This document shows positions 2,789 through 40,636 of a stretch of 64,000 nucleotides of DNA, in pieces. Positions within the stretch are counted from its first letter, which is position 1, and every line of letters starts with the position of its first letter. The notes below the pieces were generated by a model that saw only the letters and a list, made by a program, of their open reading frames with translations, was not told the DNA's origin and did not search any database. The DNA comes from a virus. A program made the position numbers and the translations under genes. Location: positions 1-64,000 of IMG/VR virus record IMGVR_UViG_3300009009_000011. One strand, 5' to 3'.

Positions 2789-3811
2789 CTAGTTTCTTCG
2801 TCTTGGGTGCATCATTCCTTGGACAAGCATTGTCATTATTTCCTCACCCGCTTCTTTGGATTCTTCAAGCTTTACGGCTTTTTCTTTTTCAACTTCACTT
2901 TCTTCGGCTCTGTTATCTTTTGGAGTTTCAAATCCAATAACTTTCTTTTTCTTATCTTTACGTTCTTTGGACTTTTTAATATTTTCCAATAGTAATGGTG
3001 CATCTTTACCTGACTTTAATTCATATACTTTATTTCGTATAAGTACTGTTATAAAGTCTATTGATGGTTTAATGCCATATTCAATAAATTCTAAAGCTAA
3101 ATCTTCAGCCTTTATTTGGTCTCTGTATTTATCAGGTATAACAGATTCAATCATGGCTTTAATAATTTCAGTATCCTCTGTATCAAAGTTATATACTCTT
3201 TCAATCCTACCTATGCGGTTAATGATTGTTTCAGGTAATCTCTTAGTAGAGTTTACGGTTGCTATTAATACCATGTTGTTTCTGCTGTTAGTACCATCTA
3301 AGAAACTTAACATGTCAAGGTCGTCCCCTTTACTTTTTTCATATTCATCAATTAAGATTCCTATAAATCTGTCAGGGTCTTCAATTCTTATCATGTCAAT
3401 GACTTCGTGTAAGTCTGCAGCAGGTTCACCTTTACTCATAATACATATAGCATTCTTTTCTCTTACTAATACTTCCATTAACTGTCCTGCTAAATATGTC
3501 TTACCAGTACCAGGTCCACCGTTAAATATTAATGCTAATTTATGCATTAATCCTAAGTCAATTCTAGCCTCATGTGCTATAGGATCAATAAAGAAATTTA
3601 TATGTTCCCTTGCTTCTTTGAATACACCTGTGTTTATTTCTTTACCTGATTTGTATCTGTTGTTTAACTCCAGGAATACATGAGTCCCAGACCATGGTGA
3701 TCTTTCAACTTTTATATTATATACACCTGCCTCTAATGTAGATTTTACATCTGCAGATTTCCTTGGTACAACCTCGTATTTGTTAATTTTATCTTCTTGT
3801 ACTAAAAACAT
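2789..3811 (-). CDS. AAA+ ATPase
   Basis: Walker A GGPGTGKT, Walker B ILIDE, sensor-1 ATVN and arginine finger NRIGRIE. Confidence 0.85.
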   Translation of the reverse strand: MFLVQEDKINKYEVVPRKSADVKSTLEAGVYNIKVERSPWSGTHVFLELNNRYKSGKEINTGVFKEAREHINFFIDPIAHEARIDLGLMHKLALIFNGGPGTGKTYLAGQLMEVLVREKNAICIMSKGEPAADLHEVIDMIRIEDPDRFIGILIDEYEKSKGDDLDMLSFLDGTNSRNNMVLIATVNSTKRLPETIINRIGRIERVYNFDTEDTEIIKAMIESVIPDKYRDQIKAEDLALEFIEYGIKPSIDFITVLIRNKVYELKSGKDAPLLLENIKKSKERKDKKKKVIGFETPKDNRAEESEVEKEKAVKLEESKEAGEEIMTMLVQGMMHPRRRN

Positions 3812-3830
3812 ATGATTTATGATTAAAATT

Positions 3831-3852
3831 GGGGGTATTGTTACATACCCCC
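3831..3852 (-). terminator. Hairpin, probable terminator
   Basis: GGGGGTA...TACCCCC inverted repeat in an intergenic gap. Confidence 0.55.
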
Positions 3853-3958
3853 TGTTTTACTTATTTTAAAGCGATTTAAGACACTTTCTTTTTCAAGCAT
3901 ATGGAAATATACCTAAGTTACAGATCGTGTCTCTAAACGCATGTAAATGGCCTCTACG

Positions 3959-4834
3959 TTAATCATTGCTACATTTAACATCAATGCCATCATAATTAGT
4001 GTATGTATATACATAACCTTTAAGCCTTCTCCAATAACTATTTCTAGTATTTTCGAGTTTATTAGTTAATTCATTAGCCTTAAGTACTTCTATAATAGCT
4101 TCTTTCCTTGCAGCTCTTTCAACGAATAACTTACGGAATAACTTACGCCAGAAACCTAACTTTTCAGCTTCAGCTAACTTAGTTACAAGCAATTCATTTG
4201 CAGCTTTTAACTTTTCAACTTCTTCTAAACGTTTAGCTTCTAATTCGGCCTCAGTCTTATTCTTCTTAATCTTATTCATCTCTTCTCTAAGTTCCTGAAT
4301 TTCTTCTTTATACTTATTGATTCGATCAAGATTCTTTGACTGAAGATCTTCTATCTCATTAGAATGACGTTTGTCTTTACGTTTTGCTTCGTTTTCTAGA
4401 GTTTCAATCTTAATCTCAAGATCAAGTTGTAAATCTTCTAAACTTGCAATAGACTTTTTAGTCTGTTTTTCAACATCTTTCCTGATGTTTGCTAATTCAG
4501 AATCAAGGTTCTTGTAAATAGGCTTTCCTGATTTAGTTCTCTTACTTAAAAACTGACCACAATGAGGACAATAAGAACTAGTAGTATTTCCAGTATAGCC
4601 ACAGTTACTACAGTATTTTTCAGTAATTTGTTCTGTACTGCCAACTATAACCTTTTGCTGATCTTTAGCAAGTTCTAATTCTCTTTCGAGTTCGTGTACT
4701 TTAGACTTAAGCACTTCATCTTTGGAGCCTATAGAGATTTGTAGATTTGCAATCTTCTCTGTCAGAGTTAATATCTGATCGTTAAGTCTTTTTAATTCTT
4801 GATCTTTCTGAATAAGGATGTCTGTTTTGTTCAT
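3959..4834 (-). CDS. Coiled-coil protein with zinc-ribbon insertion
   Basis: Heptad-rich K/E/L sequence containing CSNCG-x10-CPHCG. Confidence 0.7.
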   Translation of the reverse strand: MNKTDILIQKDQELKRLNDQILTLTEKIANLQISIGSKDEVLKSKVHELERELELAKDQQKVIVGSTEQITEKYCSNCGYTGNTTSSYCPHCGQFLSKRTKSGKPIYKNLDSELANIRKDVEKQTKKSIASLEDLQLDLEIKIETLENEAKRKDKRHSNEIEDLQSKNLDRINKYKEEIQELREEMNKIKKNKTEAELEAKRLEEVEKLKAANELLVTKLAEAEKLGFWRKLFRKLFVERAARKEAIIEVLKANELTNKLENTRNSYWRRLKGYVYTYTNYDGIDVKCSND

Positions 4835-5070
4835 TCTTCAATTTGTTTTATAAATTCGCTAATATTAATCTGGCTCTCTATTGCACTAACCAGTTCATCA
4901 AATGTGTGATTATCATCAGGTAACACACAGAGACGTGCTGAGATCTCTTCGTTTAACTTTGCTTTTACTTTAATAAGTAACTCACTATTGTTATTAAATT
5001 TGGCAATGTTATTTCTTAATACTTTACTTATAATGTAATTAGTTAATTTTTCCACTTTATATATCTTCAT
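4831..5070 (-). CDS. Hypothetical protein
   Basis: 79-aa ORF with an ATGA overlap to the next gene. Confidence 0.6.
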   Translation of the reverse strand: MKIYKVEKLTNYIISKVLRNNIAKFNNNSELLIKVKAKLNEEISARLCVLPDDNHTFDELVSAIESQINISEFIKQIEE

Positions 5071-5082
5071 ATATTAAAAGTT

Positions 5083-5103
5083 AAGGGGGCATATAGCCCC
5101 CTT
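5083..5103 (-). terminator. Hairpin, probable terminator
   Basis: AAGGGGGC-atata-GCCCCCTT. Confidence 0.65.
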
Positions 5104-5106
5104 TTA

Positions 5107-5610
5107 TTATCGTATACCATATATTAATTCTATATAGAATGGTTTTATATAGTATTCTTCTGCATGGTCTATTGTATATTTATTAGCATAGTATTCGTTT
5201 GCAGTAAACACTTTGTGTTTATCTTTAAATAATATGCCAAATAAAATGCTGTCTTTATCAGCAGACCAGAAATATAATAATTTTCTTTTATACTTCTCTG
5301 ACAGTTTAGAATACTTACCATTAATAATTAAATATAGGTCGTCTTTATACTCTTTTGGTATTTCAAATATGTACAGTGCAGAGTTATCTGTGTAACGTAT
5401 GTTCTTTATAAACAACCCTTCTGTACATAAATTTAAGTCAAAATTATCTTTGACTTCAAATATTATTTTATTATCATATTCTGGTTTATCAAAGATAGAC
5501 AAATACGTATTGTGAATATTAGGGAATGTGTCTGAATGTTTTATATTATCTTTAAATACCATCGGCGCAATAAAATTTATTGTTGTGCTAAAAGTATCTA
5601 AGTAGTTCAT
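5107..5610 (-). CDS. Hypothetical phage protein
   Basis: 167-aa ORF tightly packed in the operon; GKYSKLS motif. Confidence 0.65.
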   Translation of the reverse strand: MNYLDTFSTTINFIAPMVFKDNIKHSDTFPNIHNTYLSIFDKPEYDNKIIFEVKDNFDLNLCTEGLFIKNIRYTDNSALYIFEIPKEYKDDLYLIINGKYSKLSEKYKRKLLYFWSADKDSILFGILFKDKHKVFTANEYYANKYTIDHAEEYYIKPFYIELIYGIR

Positions 5611-5611
5611 T

Positions 5612-6586
5612 TTATAATTCTTCAGTGCCTACACCATCATAATAAACCTGTGGGTAATCCCATAAGTTATTATCAAAGTGCCATTTTAATTGTTTCATAG
5701 TTAGTTCTATTTCGTCTAAACCTCTATTAAGTGTAATTTCCTTTATGGTATACACTTTAATTTCAGTTGGCTCTTTCATATTTATGGCCACTATATAAGT
5801 TTCTTTTTTGTAATCATCAAATCCTTCGATTTTTGTTTCTTTAAAATACCACTTAACAGCTAACCAATAGTAAGCCATTTGACGAAAATATTTATATTCA
5901 AAGAATTTATCCTTGAATTCTCCAAAAGAATTAGTAGTTTTTAAATCAATTATTTTAATTGTTTTACTATTATGATCTATTATAATTCTATCTAATAATG
6001 ATTTACATTCAATTCCATTAGGGTATGTCCAATATATTGGGAATTCATTTTTAATAATTAAATTTTCATCATTATTAAATATGTTTTGTTTATCATTATA
6101 TAATAAATCTCTTACTGTTTTATGTTCCATTAACTTAATTTTTATATCACTAAGTTTATTTTCCATATTTTTAGATAAAACAGTTTTAATAGTAGATATT
6201 TTTATTGATTTTATATAGTTTTTAAATTGATTTGCAAGTTTTTCTGCTTTTTCAAGCAGTACCTCATCCTTTTCTTTACTAACATATACATCTTTATATG
6301 CTCTTAATAGTAAATCTGGTTTAAGTTTATTTTTATATCTTGCTACATGATCACAAAAGTCTTTTTGTTGTTGACTTTTTGGTGCTTCATAGTCTAAAAA
6401 CGTATAATTTTTATTAAATTCTTCTGGTTCTAATATAAAACAATGTACTATTTCACCTTTTTCGTATATAAATTTGTTATCTTCCTCTATCTCCTTATCA
6501 AACATAAGTTTGAAGTACTTAGGAGATATTTGAAACCATGATAATGATGAATTACTAACCCGTTTTATATCGTAATATTCTTTCAT
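5612..6586 (-). CDS. PD-(D/E)XK exonuclease (RecE/ExoVIII-like)
   Basis: SNSSL N-terminus, GEIVH, KSLLDR...IIDLKT and YFRQMAYY motifs. Confidence 0.85.
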   Translation of the reverse strand: MKEYYDIKRVSNSSLSWFQISPKYFKLMFDKEIEEDNKFIYEKGEIVHCFILEPEEFNKNYTFLDYEAPKSQQQKDFCDHVARYKNKLKPDLLLRAYKDVYVSKEKDEVLLEKAEKLANQFKNYIKSIKISTIKTVLSKNMENKLSDIKIKLMEHKTVRDLLYNDKQNIFNNDENLIIKNEFPIYWTYPNGIECKSLLDRIIIDHNSKTIKIIDLKTTNSFGEFKDKFFEYKYFRQMAYYWLAVKWYFKETKIEGFDDYKKETYIVAINMKEPTEIKVYTIKEITLNRGLDEIELTMKQLKWHFDNNLWDYPQVYYDGVGTEEL

Positions 6587-14586: not shown

Positions 14587-16194
14587 TCACGCAGAGTTAG
14601 TCTTACTCTCCTTTTGTTGTTTTTCTGTCTGTTTCTCTTTCTCCTGTTGCTCCTGAAGCAACTTCATATTCTTCTTTATTATTCTTCTTCGTTCACACAG
14701 TTCCGATGGATACTGCTTGGTTATTATGGTCTTATATGTTATACGTGGATACCTGTAAAAAGTTTCAATTTTATCAACTAATTCTACAAATATTTTCTTG
14801 TATATTTTGCCTTCAGAATTCTTCAAATAAGCATACTTCGGTATCTGTATTTTACATTCAACCTTTTCTGCTTGTGTGTCTGCTATTTCCATCTCACCGT
14901 GATATTTTTTACCAGATTTTATTGGTTCATATCTTATATTTTCAACTTGCGGTTCGACTTCAATAATTTGACGTTTAGAATGTCTGTCATATAAAGGAGT
15001 AGAGCGATGTTTAATTGGTTTATCTATACCAACTAATTTCTTGTTAATTGTAACATACTTGAGTGGTAGAACTTTCTTTTGTTCTACTTTTGGAATAAAT
15101 GAATTTGTAACTATTTCATTACCTTCTTCATCTTTTGTAGAAAATGGCTTATCACTCCAATATAAATCTTTTTCTGCTAAGTCTATATTGTGATATTTTT
15201 TCCACTCAACTTTTTTGCAGTAATCATAATGACTACCAGTTGTTACTAATTTAAGGGCTTCGGATTTTGTAATGCGTTCTATTTCCCCTGTATTTAAATC
15301 TTTAACGCATACAAGTTTTTCCTTCTTCTTTTTCTTTACATCTGGTCTGTTAGGTCTGTTAAGTTTTGGTATTTGTTTTTTCTTTTCAGCCGGCTTTGCT
15401 GGATTATCCATCCATGCATATATTTTTACCTTTTTTGTATAGGGTTTACCATCTTTAGTTATAAAGATTTTTTCCCCTTCACCTATAAATACTTGTTTTC
15501 TAGGTGCAATTGGAATTTGATGATTAGGCCATTTACCCGTAGTATGTTGTGTATTTCGTTTTTTATCTTCTACAGATGTTGGTTCCAATAAATATTGCCA
15601 TAAAAAATCATAACCACATGGGGAAGGTTCTGGATCATTTAGCCCTAATAGCCAACGCCAATCTTGATTAAAATCTCTCCACCATTGATTAACTTCATTT
15701 GGTAATTTAATCCATGCTTTATATAGAAAAGTTCCATATATCAAACGTCGTTGCATTACTCCATTAACAATGACTCGATGTTCAAATTCATCACCAACTT
15801 TTGGTAATACAGTTACTCTTAAATGTAATGGTTTCTCTATACTTTTTTTAGATTTAGGGTCATATGATCTGTAATTATAATTAATAGTACGTATTGCATA
15901 ATTACCTGTTTCTTGACCTGGCAGTAAAAATGTTAAAGGTTTTGTCTTAAGCATTTCCTTTAATGTACAAGTTGGTATTGCTAAACCATCTCTATACATT
16001 ACTCTTTCTGCTTGAGTTTCTTTTTTTAACTGTACTTTTAAAGACAAAGGTATTCTAATATGACTCTTGCCTTTCTTTACAGTTTTTATTTTAATACATT
16101 TTCTAGTATCCTTAGTTCTACCACGGATGTTAGAGGTCTTGCATTTCAAAACATGCTTTCTTGCATATTTTTTCTTCTTCTTATATTTTGTCAT
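14587..16194 (-). CDS. Very basic 535-aa hypothetical protein
   Basis: Long K/R-rich ORF on the coding strand of the operon. Confidence 0.7.
   Translation of the reverse strand: MTKYKKKKKYARKHVLKCKTSNIRGRTKDTRKCIKIKTVKKGKSHIRIPLSLKVQLKKETQAERVMYRDGLAIPTCTLKEMLKTKPLTFLLPGQETGNYAIRTINYNYRSYDPKSKKSIEKPLHLRVTVLPKVGDEFEHRVIVNGVMQRRLIYGTFLYKAWIKLPNEVNQWWRDFNQDWRWLLGLNDPEPSPCGYDFLWQYLLEPTSVEDKKRNTQHTTGKWPNHQIPIAPRKQVFIGEGEKIFITKDGKPYTKKVKIYAWMDNPAKPAEKKKQIPKLNRPNRPDVKKKKKEKLVCVKDLNTGEIERITKSEALKLVTTGSHYDYCKKVEWKKYHNIDLAEKDLYWSDKPFSTKDEEGNEIVTNSFIPKVEQKKVLPLKYVTINKKLVGIDKPIKHRSTPLYDRHSKRQIIEVEPQVENIRYEPIKSGKKYHGEMEIADTQAEKVECKIQIPKYAYLKNSEGKIYKKIFVELVDKIETFYRYPRITYKTIITKQYPSELCERRRIIKKNMKLLQEQQEKEKQTEKQQKESKTNSA
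14739..14767 (-). promoter_or_regulatory. ECF-type promoter TGAAAC-N16-CGTATAA, about 185 nt upstream of polB
   Basis: Same spacing and -10 element as the four intergenic copies; lies within the preceding ORF. Confidence 0.55.
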
Positions 16195-19051: not shown

Positions 19052-19080
19052 TTATACGTAAAAACTGCGATTTGGTTACA
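19052..19080 (-). promoter_or_regulatory. ECF-type promoter TGTAAC-N16-CGTATAA heading the replication operon
   Basis: Exact motif in an intergenic position, just downstream of a terminator-like hairpin. Confidence 0.75.
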
Positions 19081-19220: not shown

Positions 19221-19778
19221 TTACTCTGTTTTTATTCGTAAACTAATAATTGGCACTACTCTTTGTAGGTCCACTAATTTAGATTTTAACTTTTTCACTT
19301 TGTCTGATAGCCTGTGGCTATTTGTAGCATGTTTCATACCATTCAAAGTTTTGTCAACTTTAAACGATTGATATCTTGCTATTACTGGTTCTTTATAGTC
19401 TGCTACAATGTCAACACTTTCTGGTTCTACTATAATACATGCTTTCATATACTCTTTGTATACAACATCTAATAGATCCATACGGTCGCAATATCTAGTA
19501 AGACTGACGATAGTGGCGACTTTATCATTAAATAAACTTACATATACAGCACGGTCTGCTTTTTTACATATAAGTTTACCTACTTCTATAGGTATATATT
19601 TAATAATTATGTCTGTTACTGGTATCCTTTTTCTGAAAAGTGACCATTTAGATTTTTTCAGAATTACTATACCAGAGCGGGTTACTCTAGCGTAACCCAC
19701 CCGTGGTAATAATGAAACACACATTTCCGCAATTTTCTTACGATTACGGTATGTGAGGTAGATAATATTCTTTAACAT
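19221..19778 (-). CDS. Hypothetical protein
   Basis: 185-aa ORF with a TAATG overlap. Confidence 0.65.
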   Translation of the reverse strand: MLKNIIYLTYRNRKKIAEMCVSLLPRVGYARVTRSGIVILKKSKWSLFRKRIPVTDIIIKYIPIEVGKLICKKADRAVYVSLFNDKVATIVSLTRYCDRMDLLDVVYKEYMKACIIVEPESVDIVADYKEPVIARYQSFKVDKTLNGMKHATNSHRLSDKVKKLKSKLVDLQRVVPIISLRIKTE

Positions 19779-20371
19779 TAAGGAGATAACTTAATAAGTT
19801 CATAGAATCTTACATAGTCTTGCCCCATTAGAGCCGGCCATAATAGAGATGCTACTAATAATATTATTAAATAACATACAAACAACATAAATACATAAGC
19901 AATAGCACTACCATTTAACCTTCTGTATGACTTAACATATAGTGTTATAAGTAAAAACATAGATAAAATAGAACCTACTGCTAAACATGTACTTTGGTTA
20001 TTTTTCTGACGAATAAATTTATTAATCTGTCCAACAGAATAACCTGTACGTTGCTGTAATTGGTCCATTACAGGACCATACCTCCTTTCTTGTAGCTTTG
20101 CTAAAACAGTAATATTATCATTAAAGTTTTTAGCTACTTCTAGAAGTTCTTTATTACTTAACATCTGCAAATTAAATTTCCCTTCCAATACACCATTATT
20201 ATCCGTAATGGTTAATTGTGGATTCTGAAATTGTACATTTACAGTAATGCTGTCTGATGCTGTTTGTAATACCATGTCATCTGTATTATCTTTATCCGGA
20301 ATTTTAGTAAAGGATGGTAAGATAAAGGTAAACAAAAACATCATTGAATAAATCAATAAACGATTTCTCAT
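19778..20371 (-). CDS. Membrane protein (signal peptide plus two C-terminal TM helices)
   Basis: Hydrophobic N-terminus and two hydrophobic C-terminal segments. Confidence 0.7.
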   Translation of the reverse strand: MRNRLLIYSMMFLFTFILPSFTKIPDKDNTDDMVLQTASDSITVNVQFQNPQLTITDNNGVLEGKFNLQMLSNKELLEVAKNFNDNITVLAKLQERRYGPVMDQLQQRTGYSVGQINKFIRQKNNQSTCLAVGSILSMFLLITLYVKSYRRLNGSAIAYVFMLFVCYLIILLVASLLWPALMGQDYVRFYELIKLSP

Positions 20372-21019: not shown

Positions 21020-21493
21020 TTACTTGATTTGTTTTTTGACTATATAAAATAATTTTTTGTTTTTTGTTAGATGCTTTGTAATATTGGTATCTCGTATTTC
21101 TTTCTTTGGAAGAATTATTCCAGATTTAATATCTTTATAATCCAGTTCAAGTTCTATCCATAAATTTGTTAAAACTTCTTTTGGATTTCCCCATAAACAT
21201 TTTGGTAACTTGTTTCTACTAACATCCCATATATTTTTATAGGGTCTTAAAAAAGTTTTAGTTTCTTCTGTAGATTTATGAAAAGATAATCTTGGTAACT
21301 GTATTATTTTTTGTTTATTAAATAAATTAAATACCAACGCTTTAACTGTTGAAACTTTATATCTAAGTTTTATCCCTCCAACATAAGCATCTTTCACTAT
21401 GACCTTTTTATCAGCAATTTCTGGTATATCACTTTGTATAAGATCATAACGATAAAAAGTTTGTTTTTGCATGGTACTAAATTTTAATTGCAT
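21020..21493 (-). CDS. Basic hypothetical protein
   Basis: 157-aa ORF directly downstream of the large non-coding region. Confidence 0.65.
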   Translation of the reverse strand: MQLKFSTMQKQTFYRYDLIQSDIPEIADKKVIVKDAYVGGIKLRYKVSTVKALVFNLFNKQKIIQLPRLSFHKSTEETKTFLRPYKNIWDVSRNKLPKCLWGNPKEVLTNLWIELELDYKDIKSGIILPKKEIRDTNITKHLTKNKKLFYIVKKQIK

Positions 21494-23258
21494 TTGTGTT
21501 GAAGCACGAGTAACTAACTTATGAGCACATTGTTATCGTAGACAACATTTTAACCCAAAAATTTTACTCTGATGTTTTTATTTATATTATAAGAAAGTTA
21601 TATTGGTTAAGGATATAACGTATCAATCTTATAATCGATGAACCTTGTGAGCAACTATTAAGTACACTCCAATAGTCATACAAATAGGTTTACGCTAATT
21701 ACTCTGTGTGCTTCGGATGCAAGCGTATTACTTAGTTCCCTTCTTCTTCGCTTAGCTTAGAATGTATCTTTTTTTGTACGGACGATGTCGCCGTTAACAC
21801 AAATATTATGTTTTACTTTTTCAGTATGTTGCTTATTATATGATGTCCCACCCTTATAGATAGTGCTATTTACTCCTGTATTTCACCACAGGCTCTAACT
21901 TTTACTTCGATAAATTCTGAAATATATTGAGATATTTTTTGAAAATAAGTAAATTAAATTGTATATTAATGAAATACACAACAAGTTTCGATTTCACACA
22001 TGTATCTATATGTGATGGTGCATATAATAACGGTAGATTTCACCCTCTACCTCACGTCAATGCTAATGTGACTATAGGTTGTCCTTCTATATACAGATAT
22101 CCTTATGACCATTACGGTTTTTTGGCTATTACATCTGTACACTCCAGAATCTGATATGTAGGCATGGATTTATTAACATTATCCAATTTTCGAGACTTAT
22201 TTTATTGCTTATTTCAACGGTGGATTTAAACCACGAAGTCTGACACTCACTGTGAGCTTATGACATCCCAGTTACGGTGGGCTCCCTTTGAACTTAGATA
22301 TAATATGATACCATTGCATATTATAACTTCTCTTGGGACTACGATTACTTTAAGTTTTATTTAAGTATGGTAAAAATAATGCTATATCTACTACTCACGA
22401 TTGGTCTCTGTTCTAATTAGCCTTTGGCATAATTATTTTCGTCAATTGCGGAACAAAGGGTTTGATCTCGTTCTAATCCATCTATCCATTATAAGATGGG
22501 AGCAGCCGTACTTTTTGTTCTACCGTAAGTACCAACGTCACCTAATTAATTAGGAATCTAAAAATCATCGTTTTCCTCTCTATTATACGTTCTGAATCAC
22601 TATAACGTATACCTCCTCTATCGTTACCAGTCAAATGCACTGGTGCTTAAATATTTGAGAAAATGAATTCTCAACTTTCCTCCCACATAGCATTGTATCC
22701 TAATTTTTAGCATTTCATCGGTAACCTTAACAGAGTTATTTTTTGACCCTGGGAATTCCACCCATTGCGTTACTCATTATGTTATATAACTTCGTTCCTA
22801 TACATAAGGTTATCTCAAACCTTGTGGTTTCTCCCATGTCTTACGACACTTCTAACTTTCGGTCTTTAGTTAGCTAACTGTATTAAACTCCTCACCATAT
22901 AACTTGTTTTCTAATAGACAGGTTTTCCCTAATTGTATCAGAATTAGTTTTACGTATCGGGTATACAATCTAGACACATTCTCCATGCATGTTTCGAAAT
23001 ATGCTAGTAAATTGTAGTGACCTCTGTCTTACTCTGTTGACATTCTAACTCAAAGCGAATGCATCCACGGTACTATCGGGTGCAATAAACTTTGTTAAAG
23101 CGGCTATGGCTAAGAGAGAATGAATTACTTCTTTTATAGTTATCATTGTTTAATGCACCACTTTCTGCTTTGTGTTCGGGTTTTCACCACAGTTATTAAA
23201 GGTTTACTCCTACTGGGGTTAATAGCAAATCGCAGCTATCTACTAAACGCAAATAACA
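21494..23258 (-). ncRNA. Candidate giant structured non-coding RNA (one or two RNAs)
   Basis: 1.75 kb with no - strand ORF in the track, inside a densely coding - strand block. It has many short hairpins with GNRA or T-loop-like loops on the - strand, repeated modules and long-range complementarity. Confidence 0.65.
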
Positions 23259-24908
23259 TCAAAGATCTTCATTTGTTGCATTAGCAACAAAATATACAGC
23301 TTTTTTTATTTTTCCATCATGAGTCTTTAAAAGCTTATCATGAAGCACTGTAACACTTTTGATAAAATCAATACCATATTCTTGATTTAGTGTTGCTTTA
23401 TAACTTTTTATAAAATTTTTAAAATCCAATAGACCCATCTTGTTGGCTTCAATAACTTCCTTATTTGGTTTTATCAAAATATGACAATCTTCACCCATCA
23501 TAAATATGAATACTTCCTTGAAATATGGTACATTTTTTAATATACGTTCAAGGTTTTCATAATTACTACCATTGAATGGAGAGTTCTTTATTGCATACTT
23601 TAATTTACCATAAACAAAAAGAAATGTTTTTCCATTAGCAATATCTATAGAAGCATGATCATTAGTGTCATAATACATTCCTTTACTTATTTCTAAGTAG
23701 TTAGCAAAATGATCACTAGCGATTACTAATGCTCCTTCTCCTGTCTGAACATTCAATTCTTTTATACCAACCGTTATATTATTTAGAGGCTCTCCAACAC
23801 AATTTTGTTCTTTGTGTTTCTTTGAGGAATAGTTATTTACAGCTATTACTTGATTAGTTTCTTGTACACCATAAGTAGTGTATATTGGTAACTTACCAAT
23901 AATAGTATGCATAATCCTTGGAGATAAAAATGCATTTAATATAATGATGGCATCTTTACGAGTACCAAAATTAAAGTCCTTTTTTAGACGATGTCGTGCA
24001 ATTAATGTAAATAACCATGAGAAACAAGTTTCTAATAATAATTTACCAAACCATCTAATTTGGTATACATGTTTTACAACTTCATACCAATGATTTTCAA
24101 ATGCATTTGTATTTGTAATAACTATATTTGCCTCTATTTTAGAGAATACAAATCTAGCATCGGAGTATAACGGCCATAATATACACCAAACAGGAGCAAT
24201 TGCGAAACTTATTTCAGAATAAATTGCTTTATTCTTTAAATTTGGCAATAAACTAGTATCTACTAATTTCATGAATGCATTATATACTTCCTCATCGTTG
24301 AAATATACACATTTTGGATAAGTAGAATCAGCTCCAGAAGAGAATACACCTATTTCACGGTTCCTTTTTTTAACATGAAAATCATGAAAGATAATGTCTT
24401 CTAATTCGTTTGCATTATACGGACCATTATTTATGGCTTCTAAATCCATTTCTAGATCTTGATAGGTATAACCTTTTATAAATGGGATGTTATTAATAAA
24501 TAGTTTACTGTCTATATTAAATGCAGTTTTGTAACATGGATTTCCACGCACTCTATTTACAACATCATATTCTTGTACATTAACTGATGTAAATAAGATA
24601 TTTATATCAGAATTAGTTATTATACCAGAAACCATTGCTGATTTTATATTTGGTGGTATTAAATAGAAATCTACATTCTTTAATATAAGTGCGATATAAC
24701 ATGCAATATAAGATGTAGAATTAGCAGCCCACAAGGCAAATCTTAAATCTTGCCCATATTCTTTTTGTATAATATTTATAACATACATGAACTTAAATAC
24801 TTCTTTTATAAAAGCTACAAAAGTAATATAATTTTCATATACATTAACAAATATTTTATCATTCCACCTTAAATGAAAGATGTTGATGATAGCTTGTATT
24901 AATTTCAT
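23259..24908 (-). CDS. Divergent AMP-dependent synthetase/ligase (long-chain acyl-CoA synthetase-like)
   Basis: ANL motifs: A3 FSSGADSTYPK, A5 TYGVQET, A7 YYDTND, A8 YGKLK and A10 LLKTHDGKIKK. Confidence 0.8.
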   Translation of the reverse strand: MKLIQAIINIFHLRWNDKIFVNVYENYITFVAFIKEVFKFMYVINIIQKEYGQDLRFALWAANSTSYIACYIALILKNVDFYLIPPNIKSAMVSGIITNSDINILFTSVNVQEYDVVNRVRGNPCYKTAFNIDSKLFINNIPFIKGYTYQDLEMDLEAINNGPYNANELEDIIFHDFHVKKRNREIGVFSSGADSTYPKCVYFNDEEVYNAFMKLVDTSLLPNLKNKAIYSEISFAIAPVWCILWPLYSDARFVFSKIEANIVITNTNAFENHWYEVVKHVYQIRWFGKLLLETCFSWLFTLIARHRLKKDFNFGTRKDAIIILNAFLSPRIMHTIIGKLPIYTTYGVQETNQVIAVNNYSSKKHKEQNCVGEPLNNITVGIKELNVQTGEGALVIASDHFANYLEISKGMYYDTNDHASIDIANGKTFLFVYGKLKYAIKNSPFNGSNYENLERILKNVPYFKEVFIFMMGEDCHILIKPNKEVIEANKMGLLDFKNFIKSYKATLNQEYGIDFIKSVTVLHDKLLKTHDGKIKKAVYFVANATNEDL

Positions 24909-30674: not shown

Positions 30675-31229
30675 TTATTTTTGTTGATTTATTATTAGTT
30701 TAGCTAATACTAATTTTGCCCTATGTATATAGGCCTTAACAGTACCTATAGGCATGTTTAGTTTATTAGCAATTTCCTCATAACTCATATCCTCAAAGTA
30801 TCGTTTTTGTATTACATTACGATATATTGGTTTAAGTTTATTTACAGCATCTTTTAAAGTTACATAATTCTGCATTTTAATGATGTTATCATCTGTGGTA
30901 GCATCATCTACAATTTGATTATGATCTTCATGTTGATGTTGTAAATCAGGCTGTACTTTACATTTTCTTAAGTAGTCAATGGCTGTGTTAGTAGCTATCC
31001 TATATAACCATGTACTAAATTTACATTTGTCATTATACATATTTAAATTTAAATATGCTTTAACAAATGTTTCATTAGTTAAATCTCTTGCTGTTTCTTT
31101 ATTATTAACTATCTTTAAGATATGAAAGTATATTATGTCTTCCCACTCTTCAAGTATCCAACGAAATTGTTGTTTGTCTCCATTTAATATTAATTTAATT
31201 AGAGACATATCAATTACACGTTTAGGCAT
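30675..31229 (-). CDS. ECF-family RNA polymerase sigma factor (SigW/RpoE-like)
   Basis: Region 2 ARDLTNETFVKAY...FSTWLYRIATNTAIDYLRK; region 4 HTH MSYEEIANKLNMPIGTVKAYIHRAK. Confidence 0.95.
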   Translation of the reverse strand: MPKRVIDMSLIKLILNGDKQQFRWILEEWEDIIYFHILKIVNNKETARDLTNETFVKAYLNLNMYNDKCKFSTWLYRIATNTAIDYLRKCKVQPDLQHQHEDHNQIVDDATTDDNIIKMQNYVTLKDAVNKLKPIYRNVIQKRYFEDMSYEEIANKLNMPIGTVKAYIHRAKLVLAKLIINQQK

Positions 31230-32754: not shown

Positions 32755-32863
32755 TATAGGCAGCTCATATTTATAATACAGGAATTGATATAATCGTATA
32801 TATTATGTAATATTACATACTATAATGATATATATGCAAAACCTTTGTCAATATACTTTTTAG

Positions 32864-32949
32864 TCCCCATAGTAAGACTTGAACTTACACATCCATTACT
32901 GAATAAGGGATTTTAAGTCCCTCTTGTCTACCAATTCCAACATATGGGG
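32864..32949 (-). tRNA. tRNA-Leu(UAA), no encoded CCA
   Basis: Acceptor CCCCATA/TATGGGG plus A73; D arm TTGGAATTGGTAGACAA; anticodon loop CTTAAAA; long variable arm; T arm GTAAG-TTCAAGT-CTTAC. Confidence 0.92.
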
Positions 32950-38548: not shown

Positions 38549-38577
38549 TGTAACCTTTATATTTTTAATACGTATAA
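38549..38577 (+). promoter_or_regulatory. ECF-type promoter TGTAAC-N16-CGTATAA
   Basis: Exact motif just upstream of the first rightward gene. Confidence 0.75.
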
Positions 38578-39397: not shown

Positions 39398-39426
39398 TGC
39401 AACAAAATTGTAACTTGTACGTATAA
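39398..39426 (+). promoter_or_regulatory. ECF-type promoter TGCAAC-N16-CGTATAA
   Basis: Intergenic motif copy. Confidence 0.7.
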
Positions 39427-40607: not shown

Positions 40608-40636
40608 TGTAACTTTATTGTAACTTATACGTATAA
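40608..40636 (+). promoter_or_regulatory. ECF-type promoter TGTAAC-N16-CGTATAA
   Basis: Intergenic motif copy directly after a terminator. Confidence 0.75.

Follow-up and report, generated by a model that had tools for sequence, protein, structure and literature searches.

The DNA analyzed here, called the window in the following, is a 64,000-nucleotide (nt) stretch corresponding to the start of the IMG/VR virus record IMGVR_UViG_3300009009_000011, a genome of 101,841 bp rated 100% complete (W hereafter). Terminase, portal and major capsid proteins of W match crAss-type PHROGs (E 1e-124 to 1e-150); for the terminase, identity to GenBank phages does not exceed 57%, the top matches being found in Suoliviridae. 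Minus-strand genes are tightly packed from ~37.4 kb down to 2.8 kb, and among them lies a gap of 1,765 nt (21494-23258, -), bounded by the stop codon of an open reading frame (ORF) of 549 amino acids (23259-24908, -) and by the ORF 21020-21493 (-). This gap, and the large folded RNA that it probably encodes, are the subject of the present analysis.

As reported in an initial annotation of the locus, no minus-strand ORF of 60 or more amino acids is found in the gap, the longest measuring 45, a result confirmed by ORF listing under several genetic codes. This is equally true when TAG is read as glutamine or translation table 4 is used, and single-stop reassignments, each tried, yield longest open frames of 85-184 codons, none of which is common to the relatives described below. 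The sole plus-strand ORF in the gap (75 amino acids) is not conserved. The GC content of the gap is 0.35, versus ~0.27 in the flanks; the values range over 0.35-0.38 in the gap and 0.24-0.30 on either side. Substitutions are evenly spread over the three codon phases in the gap (0.48/0.54/0.55), and unevenly in the flanking genes (0.69/0.58/0.43 and 0.66/0.50/0.39). No codon periodicity is seen in the gap. The heptamer GGTGAAA occurs three times inside the gap, and 12 times in the entire window.

Three other Crassvirales contigs of IMG/VR, detected with a profile built on the upstream protein together with DNA patterns derived from conserved blocks, carry a syntenic gap of 1,589 nt (L002), 1,594 nt (L003) and 1,944 nt (L136, a contig of 101 kb). 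In every relative a homologue of the 549-residue protein is followed by the gap, and then by the same run of small conserved genes. The identity of the gap DNA is 0.68 for the pair W-L002, 0.58 for W-L003 and 0.60 for L002-L003, and the coding flanks give similar values (0.54-0.66). The flanking protein of L136 is only 28% identical to that of W. In the gap of L136, nhmmer aligned profile positions 10-886 (~880 positions, E=1.8e-77), and the 3' terminal domain was matched separately; blocks are 74-86% identical, 86% over one of 98 nt, and the middle part has diverged past alignment, both ends being kept. Conservation follows a block-wise pattern, runs of 15-30 invariant bases being separated by variable stretches which hold the indels. 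Since the gap is as conserved as its coding flanks, yet untranslated, and is alignable in L136, purifying selection acts on it no less strongly than on the adjacent proteins. The conserved, ORF-free region extends over 21501..23258 (-), is syntenic in L002, L003 and L136, and is matched by nhmmer in L136 over its 5' part and its 3' end; its size is ~1.76 kb in W and 1.6-1.95 kb in the relatives. RNA positions are given below as 23259 minus the window coordinate, RNA 1-1758 corresponding to 21501..23258, and all elements of the RNA are on the minus strand.

No relative of the gap was found by blastn among 50,697 GenBank phages, no further relatives emerged from single-protein scans of IMG/VR, and none from searches with a protein profile and with a 22-base DNA pattern in 185,579 prokaryote genomes. 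Scanning of metagenomes yielded nothing but a duplicate of L002, and a profile of the downstream 185-residue protein the same two contigs. About 120 loci matching a 14-mer pattern were unrelated, and were all rejected by nhmmer. The covariation set is made up by four genomes (W, L002, L003 and L136), ten further homologues of the upstream enzyme being known as proteins only. The phage or close relatives of it were traced in 11 public runs (X1-X11) from 8 studies of freshwater sediment, which is the probable source, of soil or wetland, and of lake water; the lake-water contigs (X8) belong to a relative ~93% identical, and X8, X10 and X11 carry small shares of the stretch. The lineage is an environmental, not a gut, crAss-like one.

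Conserved base pairing in the RNA of the gap is supported by several predictions made on the aligned sequences. Over positions 531-1765 RNAalifold predicts 241 consensus pairs in three genomes, 72 of which show a compensatory double change; over the 5' 560 nt, where four genomes can be aligned, 45 pairs are predicted, 18 being compensatory. Two sub-domains were monitored separately. In the 5' one (22919-23052, four genomes) 94% of the cells are paired and 11 of 21 pairs show changes on both sides (shuffles 0/500, slid controls 0-3); in the core one (22203-22359, three genomes) 98% of the cells are paired and 11 of 37 pairs are compensatory (shuffles 0/500, slid controls 0-1), all of these counts being flattered, as the structures were derived from the very alignments on which pairs were counted. 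A less circular test takes the pairs predicted with a probability of at least 0.6 in one sequence folded alone, and scores whether they are canonical after both bases have changed. The pairs still canonical amount to 63%, 59% and 58% for the three references, compared to 33-45% when partners are slid by 1-3 columns, 37-41% in an upstream and 50-51% in a downstream coding control, and 46-64% on the antisense strand. Consensus energies, set against column-shuffled alignments, gave a mean z of -3.0 for the sense strand, 11 of 20 alignment windows being below -3, of -1.9 for the antisense strand, and of -0.9 and -1.9 for coding controls. Compensatory changes among homologues, a check proposed for the locus, are found above both shuffled and slid controls in three to four genomes. 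A second check, folding of the single sequence versus dinucleotide shuffles, gave a modest result, which holds for the 3' part (806 nt, z -3.2) and not for the 5' part (959 nt, z -1.5). The decisive support for structure is comparative, and does not come from single-sequence folding. The sense-over-antisense asymmetry, along with the presence of the region in metatranscriptome contigs, is in line with the earlier call of a large structured RNA read on the minus strand.

Five domains or more are predicted in the RNA, every one of them with a closing helix of its own that spans ~110-650 nt. Domain 1 (23141..23255, RNA 4-118) is closed by a 12-bp helix featuring four compensatory pairs in three genomes, and hosts a hairpin, AUAGC/GCUAU (23222-23239), found with four pair types across the four genomes. 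A conserved helix, CAUUCU/AGAAUG (23041..23122), bears a variable arm (23051-23112), which is 60 nt long in W, different in L002, absent in L003, and near-identical in L136. The arm of W is 86% identical to that of L136 (~4253-4348, -), though L136 is the most distant relative; the distribution suggests that lineages have exchanged RNA arms as modules, or that arms were replaced repeatedly. In an environmental variant found in four runs the place of the arm is taken by a sequence which is unrelated, but likewise folds as a hairpin. Three nested helices form the 5' sub-domain (22919..23052, RNA 207-340) for which pairs were counted in four genomes. Domain 2 (22729..23038, RNA 221-530) is closed by the long-range helix AACAGAG/CUCUGUU (23032-23038/22729-22735, RNA 221-227/524-530), kept in all four genomes, among which G-C to C-G and A-U to G-U changes occur. 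An expansion segment of ~125 nt (22778..22904) is peculiar to W, being absent from L002, L003 and L136, and a T-loop-like hairpin, GGG-UGGAAUY-CCC (22751..22763), is invariant in the four genomes except for the Y residue. The most conserved block of the whole region (CUGUUAAGG.. ..CGAUGAAA, 22708..22735), near-invariant in the four genomes, marks the junction between domains 2 and 3.

Domain 3 (22076..22727, RNA 532-1183) is closed, and further divided, by the long-range helices 532-536/1179-1183, 770-779/1086-1095 and 875-895/1062-1085, each of which shows compensatory pairs. The core multi-branch sub-domain (22203..22359, RNA 900-1056), the one of the three-genome pair count, contains a CCCA..UGGG hairpin (22267-22281) and the T-loop-like hairpin GUGG-UUUAAAU-CCAC (22220-22234), the stems of both being invariant in the three close genomes; a further hairpin, ACAURUCAG-AUU-CUGGAGU (22141..22159), is invariant in W, L002 and L003. 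A variable or expansion region (22579..22689) includes an insertion specific to W at ~22642-22674, and the metatranscriptome contig of a relative (X9) skips 111 nt there (joint 22578>22690). Domain 4 (21831..22051, RNA 1208-1428) is closed by a long-range helix of 26 bp with seven compensatory pairs, and encloses two hairpins with GUGAAA loops, GGUAGA..UCUACC (22032-22051) and CCUGU..ACAGG (21875-21892), compensatory changes being found in both. Domain 5 (21501..21714, RNA 1545-1758) has an 18-bp closing helix (GAAGCAC..GAGUAAUUAGC paired with GUUAGUUACUC..GUGCUUC) with A-U to G-C compensation, encloses a hairpin at 21647-21681, and recurs in L136, where it lies at the 3' end of the gap. The 3' strand of this helix, the block just before the next gene, occurs in single copy in the window, and is therefore not a repeated promoter. 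The RNA was inspected also for an internal duplication giving rise to two related domains, and only two repeats of 13-14 nt were found.

All the eight hairpins that the initial annotation had placed on the minus strand are present, to within 1 nt. As conserved elements, five of them stand (GGG..CCC, CCCA..UGGG, GUGG..CCAC, GGUAGA..UCUACC and CCUGU..ACAGG), and three do not: UGUC-GUAA-GACA and AAGGUU-UGAGAU-AACCUU, listed among the GNRA-type loops, reside in the W-only insertion of ~125 nt, and the 'loop-E-like' hairpin in the variable arm 23051-23112. Expansion hairpins grafted on conserved helices are known from ribosomal RNA (rRNA) and RNase P, and in the RNA described here they are likewise lineage-specific.

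The region is present in two wetland metatranscriptomes. The summed contig depth over four bins covering 21642-23377 is 8.5, 5.8, 24 and 11 in X7, and 6.4, 3.2, 15 and 19 in X9; in both runs the depth is 0 over 23378-24679, within the upstream gene, and 0 to ~7 over the rest of 13 kb. Over 21208-21641 the cover by RNA contigs is slight or nil. In a DNA run of the same study all bins are covered (~0.4-7), the gene missed by the RNA runs included, with the exception of one bin of 434 nt (22510-22943). These contigs lend modest support to a transcription of the region, and to a relatively high abundance of its RNA.

Signals for transcription were searched for around the RNA. An alignment of the final 170 nt of the gene upstream, across relatives, contains no conserved promoter-like block, and no terminator-like site is found between the RNA and the downstream gene; the one 'terminator' candidate turned out to be the internal GGUAGA hairpin. 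An ECF-type (extracytoplasmic function) promoter motif, TGnAAC-N15-ACGTATAA, is found in five exact copies in the window, 0.1 being expected by chance. The copies map at 14739-14767 and 19052-19080 (-), and at 38549-38577, 39398-39426 and 40608-40636 (+), are oriented along the local coding strand, and are located ahead of the replication genes as well as at the right arm's head. None is found on the minus strand between 19080 and the head of the arm. The motif is missing in the related locus L128. A sigma-70/ECF-type sigma gene (30675-31229, -) resides in the same motif-free block as the RNA, and W looks like a phage endowed with a sigma factor having its own regulon. This motif-free part of the minus-strand arm, shared by RNA and sigma gene, would be transcribed before the phage sigma factor acts, and the RNA is probably made early in infection. 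The assignment of the gap to the early region is accordingly plausible, the RNA lying in the sigma-factor block, upstream of the first copy of the five-fold motif.

The gene upstream of the RNA (23259..24908, -) encodes a divergent ANL-type enzyme (AMP-forming, MenE-like) of 549 residues, as judged from matches to Pfam PF00501 (E=1e-5, below the PF00501 cut-off), TIGR01923 and the structure 3ipl in PDB; synteny of this gene and the RNA is kept throughout the four genomes. Homologues reside next to the RNA region at 3-1463 in L002, 7262-8656 in L003 and 4483-6063 (-) in L136. Only 13 homologues were found among 5.8 billion proteins, and none in 50,697 GenBank phages searched by tblastn. In a crAss-like phage, a gene of the ANL superfamily is unusual; the adenylate-forming enzyme is a candidate partner of the RNA by position only. 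The gene downstream of the RNA (21020..21472, -) encodes a conserved protein of 150 residues and starts ~28 nt past the last RNA helix. Relatives align at its second ATG (21472), not at the listed one (21493), and 21472 is probably the true start, which shortens the protein from 157 to 150 residues and lengthens the gap by ~20 nt. PHROGs provided no family for any of seven neighbour proteins. Farther away in the same minus-strand block, ~9.6 kb upstream of the RNA, lies a tRNA-Leu gene (anticodon TAA, 32863-32949, -), the only one found by ARAGORN. Within the ORF 19778-20371, at ~20050-20200 (-), one consensus-folding window of 160 columns scored a z of -7.0, equal to the best windows of the RNA; it may mark a structured element inside a messenger RNA.

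The RNA was compared with known families. The whole window gave no match in Rfam 15 at gathering score, and no family was hit by the gaps of W, L002 and L003 (E up to 10) and of L136 (E up to 5) under relaxed conditions. The collection includes GOLLD, ROOL, OLE, HEARO, raiA, RNase P, transfer-messenger RNA (tmRNA), and group I and II introns; the only tmRNA match scored 11.7 bits and was on the opposite strand. The search for a full-length match, proposed at the outset, leaves the RNA outside any catalogued family, and membership in GOLLD or ROOL, suggested as one of two options, does not hold, as neither model (RF01998, RF03087) matches. GOLLD (RF01998), reported from lake and sediment metagenomes, is similarly very large, multi-domain, phage-borne and equipped with loops resembling tertiary motifs; the present RNA is about twice as long, and the nearest tRNA gene is ~9.6 kb off rather than adjacent. 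ROOL (RF03087), OLE and raiA are likewise large and ornate, ROOL being associated with phages and prophages; none of their models matches the present RNA, which is three times longer and so far confined to a small Crassvirales clade.

The nearest precedent would rather be found in the early long non-coding RNAs of phi14:2, a crAss-like phage of Cellulophaga. Two long intergenic regions of phi14:2, g004-g005 and g005-g006, are transcribed early, and the long RNAs are persistent and more plentiful than most mRNAs (Drobysheva et al., bioRxiv 10.1101/2020.03.07.982082). The RefSeq record of phi14:2 (NC_021806) shows a stretch of ~1.7 kb free of coding sequences (2905-4601), located ~5 kb upstream of the DNA polymerase gene, with which it shares the strand. 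In W a gap of the same kind, of kilobase size, on the minus strand and free of coding sequences, lies 7 kb upstream of the DNA polymerase gene, and the gap of W has the position of the phi14:2-type early RNAs. The likeness is one of size and position. The full nhmmer profile matches phi14:2 at noise level (E=8.5), and covariance models built on the core (R1, 140 positions) and on the 5' sub-domain (R2, 136 positions) gave no match in phi14:2, in crAss001 and in three Suoliviridae genomes, to which the nhmmer profile revealed no similarity either. Furthermore, phi14:2 belongs to Steigviridae, whereas the terminase of W is nearest to Suoliviridae, at 57%, and no conserved structure of the phi14:2 RNAs is published. 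A model match of 14.8 bits in the Suoliviridae phage cr118_1 was one of many equal-scoring noise matches. The genome of cr118_1 contains, at the head of its minus-strand arm, a stretch of ~1.3 kb (NC_055872.1, 65629-66926; L135, 5630-6927) with one hypothetical ORF of 75 amino acids, which may be the positional counterpart of the RNA region.

That the gap specifies a conserved, structured non-coding RNA is very likely; that it is one gene, or a compact group of genes, specifying a very large RNA whose family is undescribed is likely, at a slightly lower level of confidence. The same had been claimed for the minus strand from the first inspection of the sequence, and conservation in the absence of an ORF, compensatory changes and lack of Rfam matches bear the claim out. 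The RNA would be read in the same direction as its neighbours, early in infection, and would fold into at least five helix-closed domains with invariant junctions and loops, including two T-loop-like hairpins and the GUGAAA loops. It may then accumulate as a stable, abundant species, and act in trans during infection as a folded scaffold, either in a ribonucleoprotein (RNP) or in an RNA-only assembly, as a counterpart of the abundant early RNAs of phi14:2. We lean slightly towards a single molecule spanning all the domains; the case for a trans-acting scaffold and that for a cis-acting leader appear evenly balanced.

Several observations weigh against this interpretation. Covariation figures come from four genomes, one of which is poorly alignable, and carry no phylogeny-aware significance; the circularity of the sub-domain counts has been mentioned. 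One coding control shows some signal (50-51% canonical pairs, mean z -1.9), the single-sequence test is weak when L136 is the sole target (0.42-0.50 vs. 0.19-0.51), and the 5' half alone folds no better than its shuffles (z -1.5). At the RNA level, the evidence consists of contigs assembled in one study, which convey neither strand nor ends nor true abundance, from runs that had themselves been selected by using this stretch. The scan for promoter and terminator consensus sequences gave nothing above shuffles. Finally, the 5' end of the RNA is not connected to its 3' end by any supported helix, so that domains could be separate RNAs, and the last helix is found ~28 nt before the next gene, a location which would suit a cis-acting leader as well.

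The last two points lead to the alternative that survives best, which is a variant of the large-RNA interpretation rather than exclusive of it: the region may encode several separate structured RNAs, or an RNA of ~1.1-1.5 kb followed by domain 5 as cis leader of the downstream small genes. Each domain having its own closing helix, none tying one end to the other, domain 5 stopping ~28 nt short of the following start codon and no terminator-like site lying in between, the L136 gap keeping both ends around a middle part diverged past alignment, and the listed RNA contigs measuring just 216-752 nt are all features expected in this case. Yet contigs cannot reveal transcript ends, neighbouring domains have adjoining closing helices (532-536 comes directly after 524-530), and all domains are kept together, in the same order, in four genomes. 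We regard a split into several RNAs as possible, though on balance unlikely.

A DNA-level element, such as a replication origin, a packaging site or an array of protein-binding sites, might be sought upstream of a replication module, and there the region is located; hairpins may form in DNA too, and the antisense consensus signal (mean z -1.9) would fit. However, iterons or direct repeats are missing, beyond the two pairs of 13-14 nt, the GC content is above that of the flanks, so the region is not AT-rich, and the cumulative GC skew makes no turn over 18-27 kb. Compensatory changes, G-U intermediates among them, favour the sense strand, contig depth in the RNA libraries is highest at the region, and block-wise conservation over 1.6-1.9 kb, with expansion hairpins, is not origin-like. 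A function exerted at the DNA level is very improbable.

Small or recoded proteins, or a decayed gene, are hardly credible: both strands do have short open frames (30-77 codons), and about four antisense stretches of ~33 codons are open in three genomes, but substitutions lack codon periodicity, no stop reassignment opens a frame, indels are placed in hairpins and are not multiples of three, and a decayed gene would not keep ~70% identity while neighbour proteins drop to 28-55%. Equally hard to sustain is a mobile RNA, be it a self-splicing intron, the template of a retroelement or an element of another type. CrAss-like phages are known to carry introns, and the arm common to W and the distant L136, but not to closer relatives, hints at modular exchange. 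However, the region sits between complete genes and not within one, occupies a fixed position in four genomes, and has no match in Rfam (E up to 10; L136 up to 5), group I and II introns, HEARO and retrons included; no reverse transcriptase is encoded in the 101.8-kb genome.

If the gap encodes one large RNA, this would be, at 1.6-1.95 kb, the largest structured phage RNA known. Structured RNAs larger than ~1 kb other than rRNA are, to our knowledge, extremely rare, and GOLLD, ROOL and OLE each revealed an unexpected RNA architecture. Modular expansion arms and invariant T-loop-like hairpins translate into concrete constructs and mutants, and the family, defined in sequence and supported by covariation, can be compared with the unexplained abundant early RNAs of phi14:2, which makes the long RNAs of crAss-like phages accessible to structure probing, cryo-electron microscopy and comparative genomics. 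The order Crassvirales includes some of the most abundant viruses known. Rather speculatively, and with less confidence than is given to any of the large-RNA variants above, the RNA of W may be one lineage of a general but unrecognised Crassvirales feature, a kilobase-sized, rRNA-like, multi-domain RNA which every clade would carry in the same location, ahead of its replication genes; such RNAs, those of phi14:2 included, would share a function and perhaps an ancestry, would have diverged beyond recognition, and would form the core of a large RNP or RNA-only assembly serving early host takeover.

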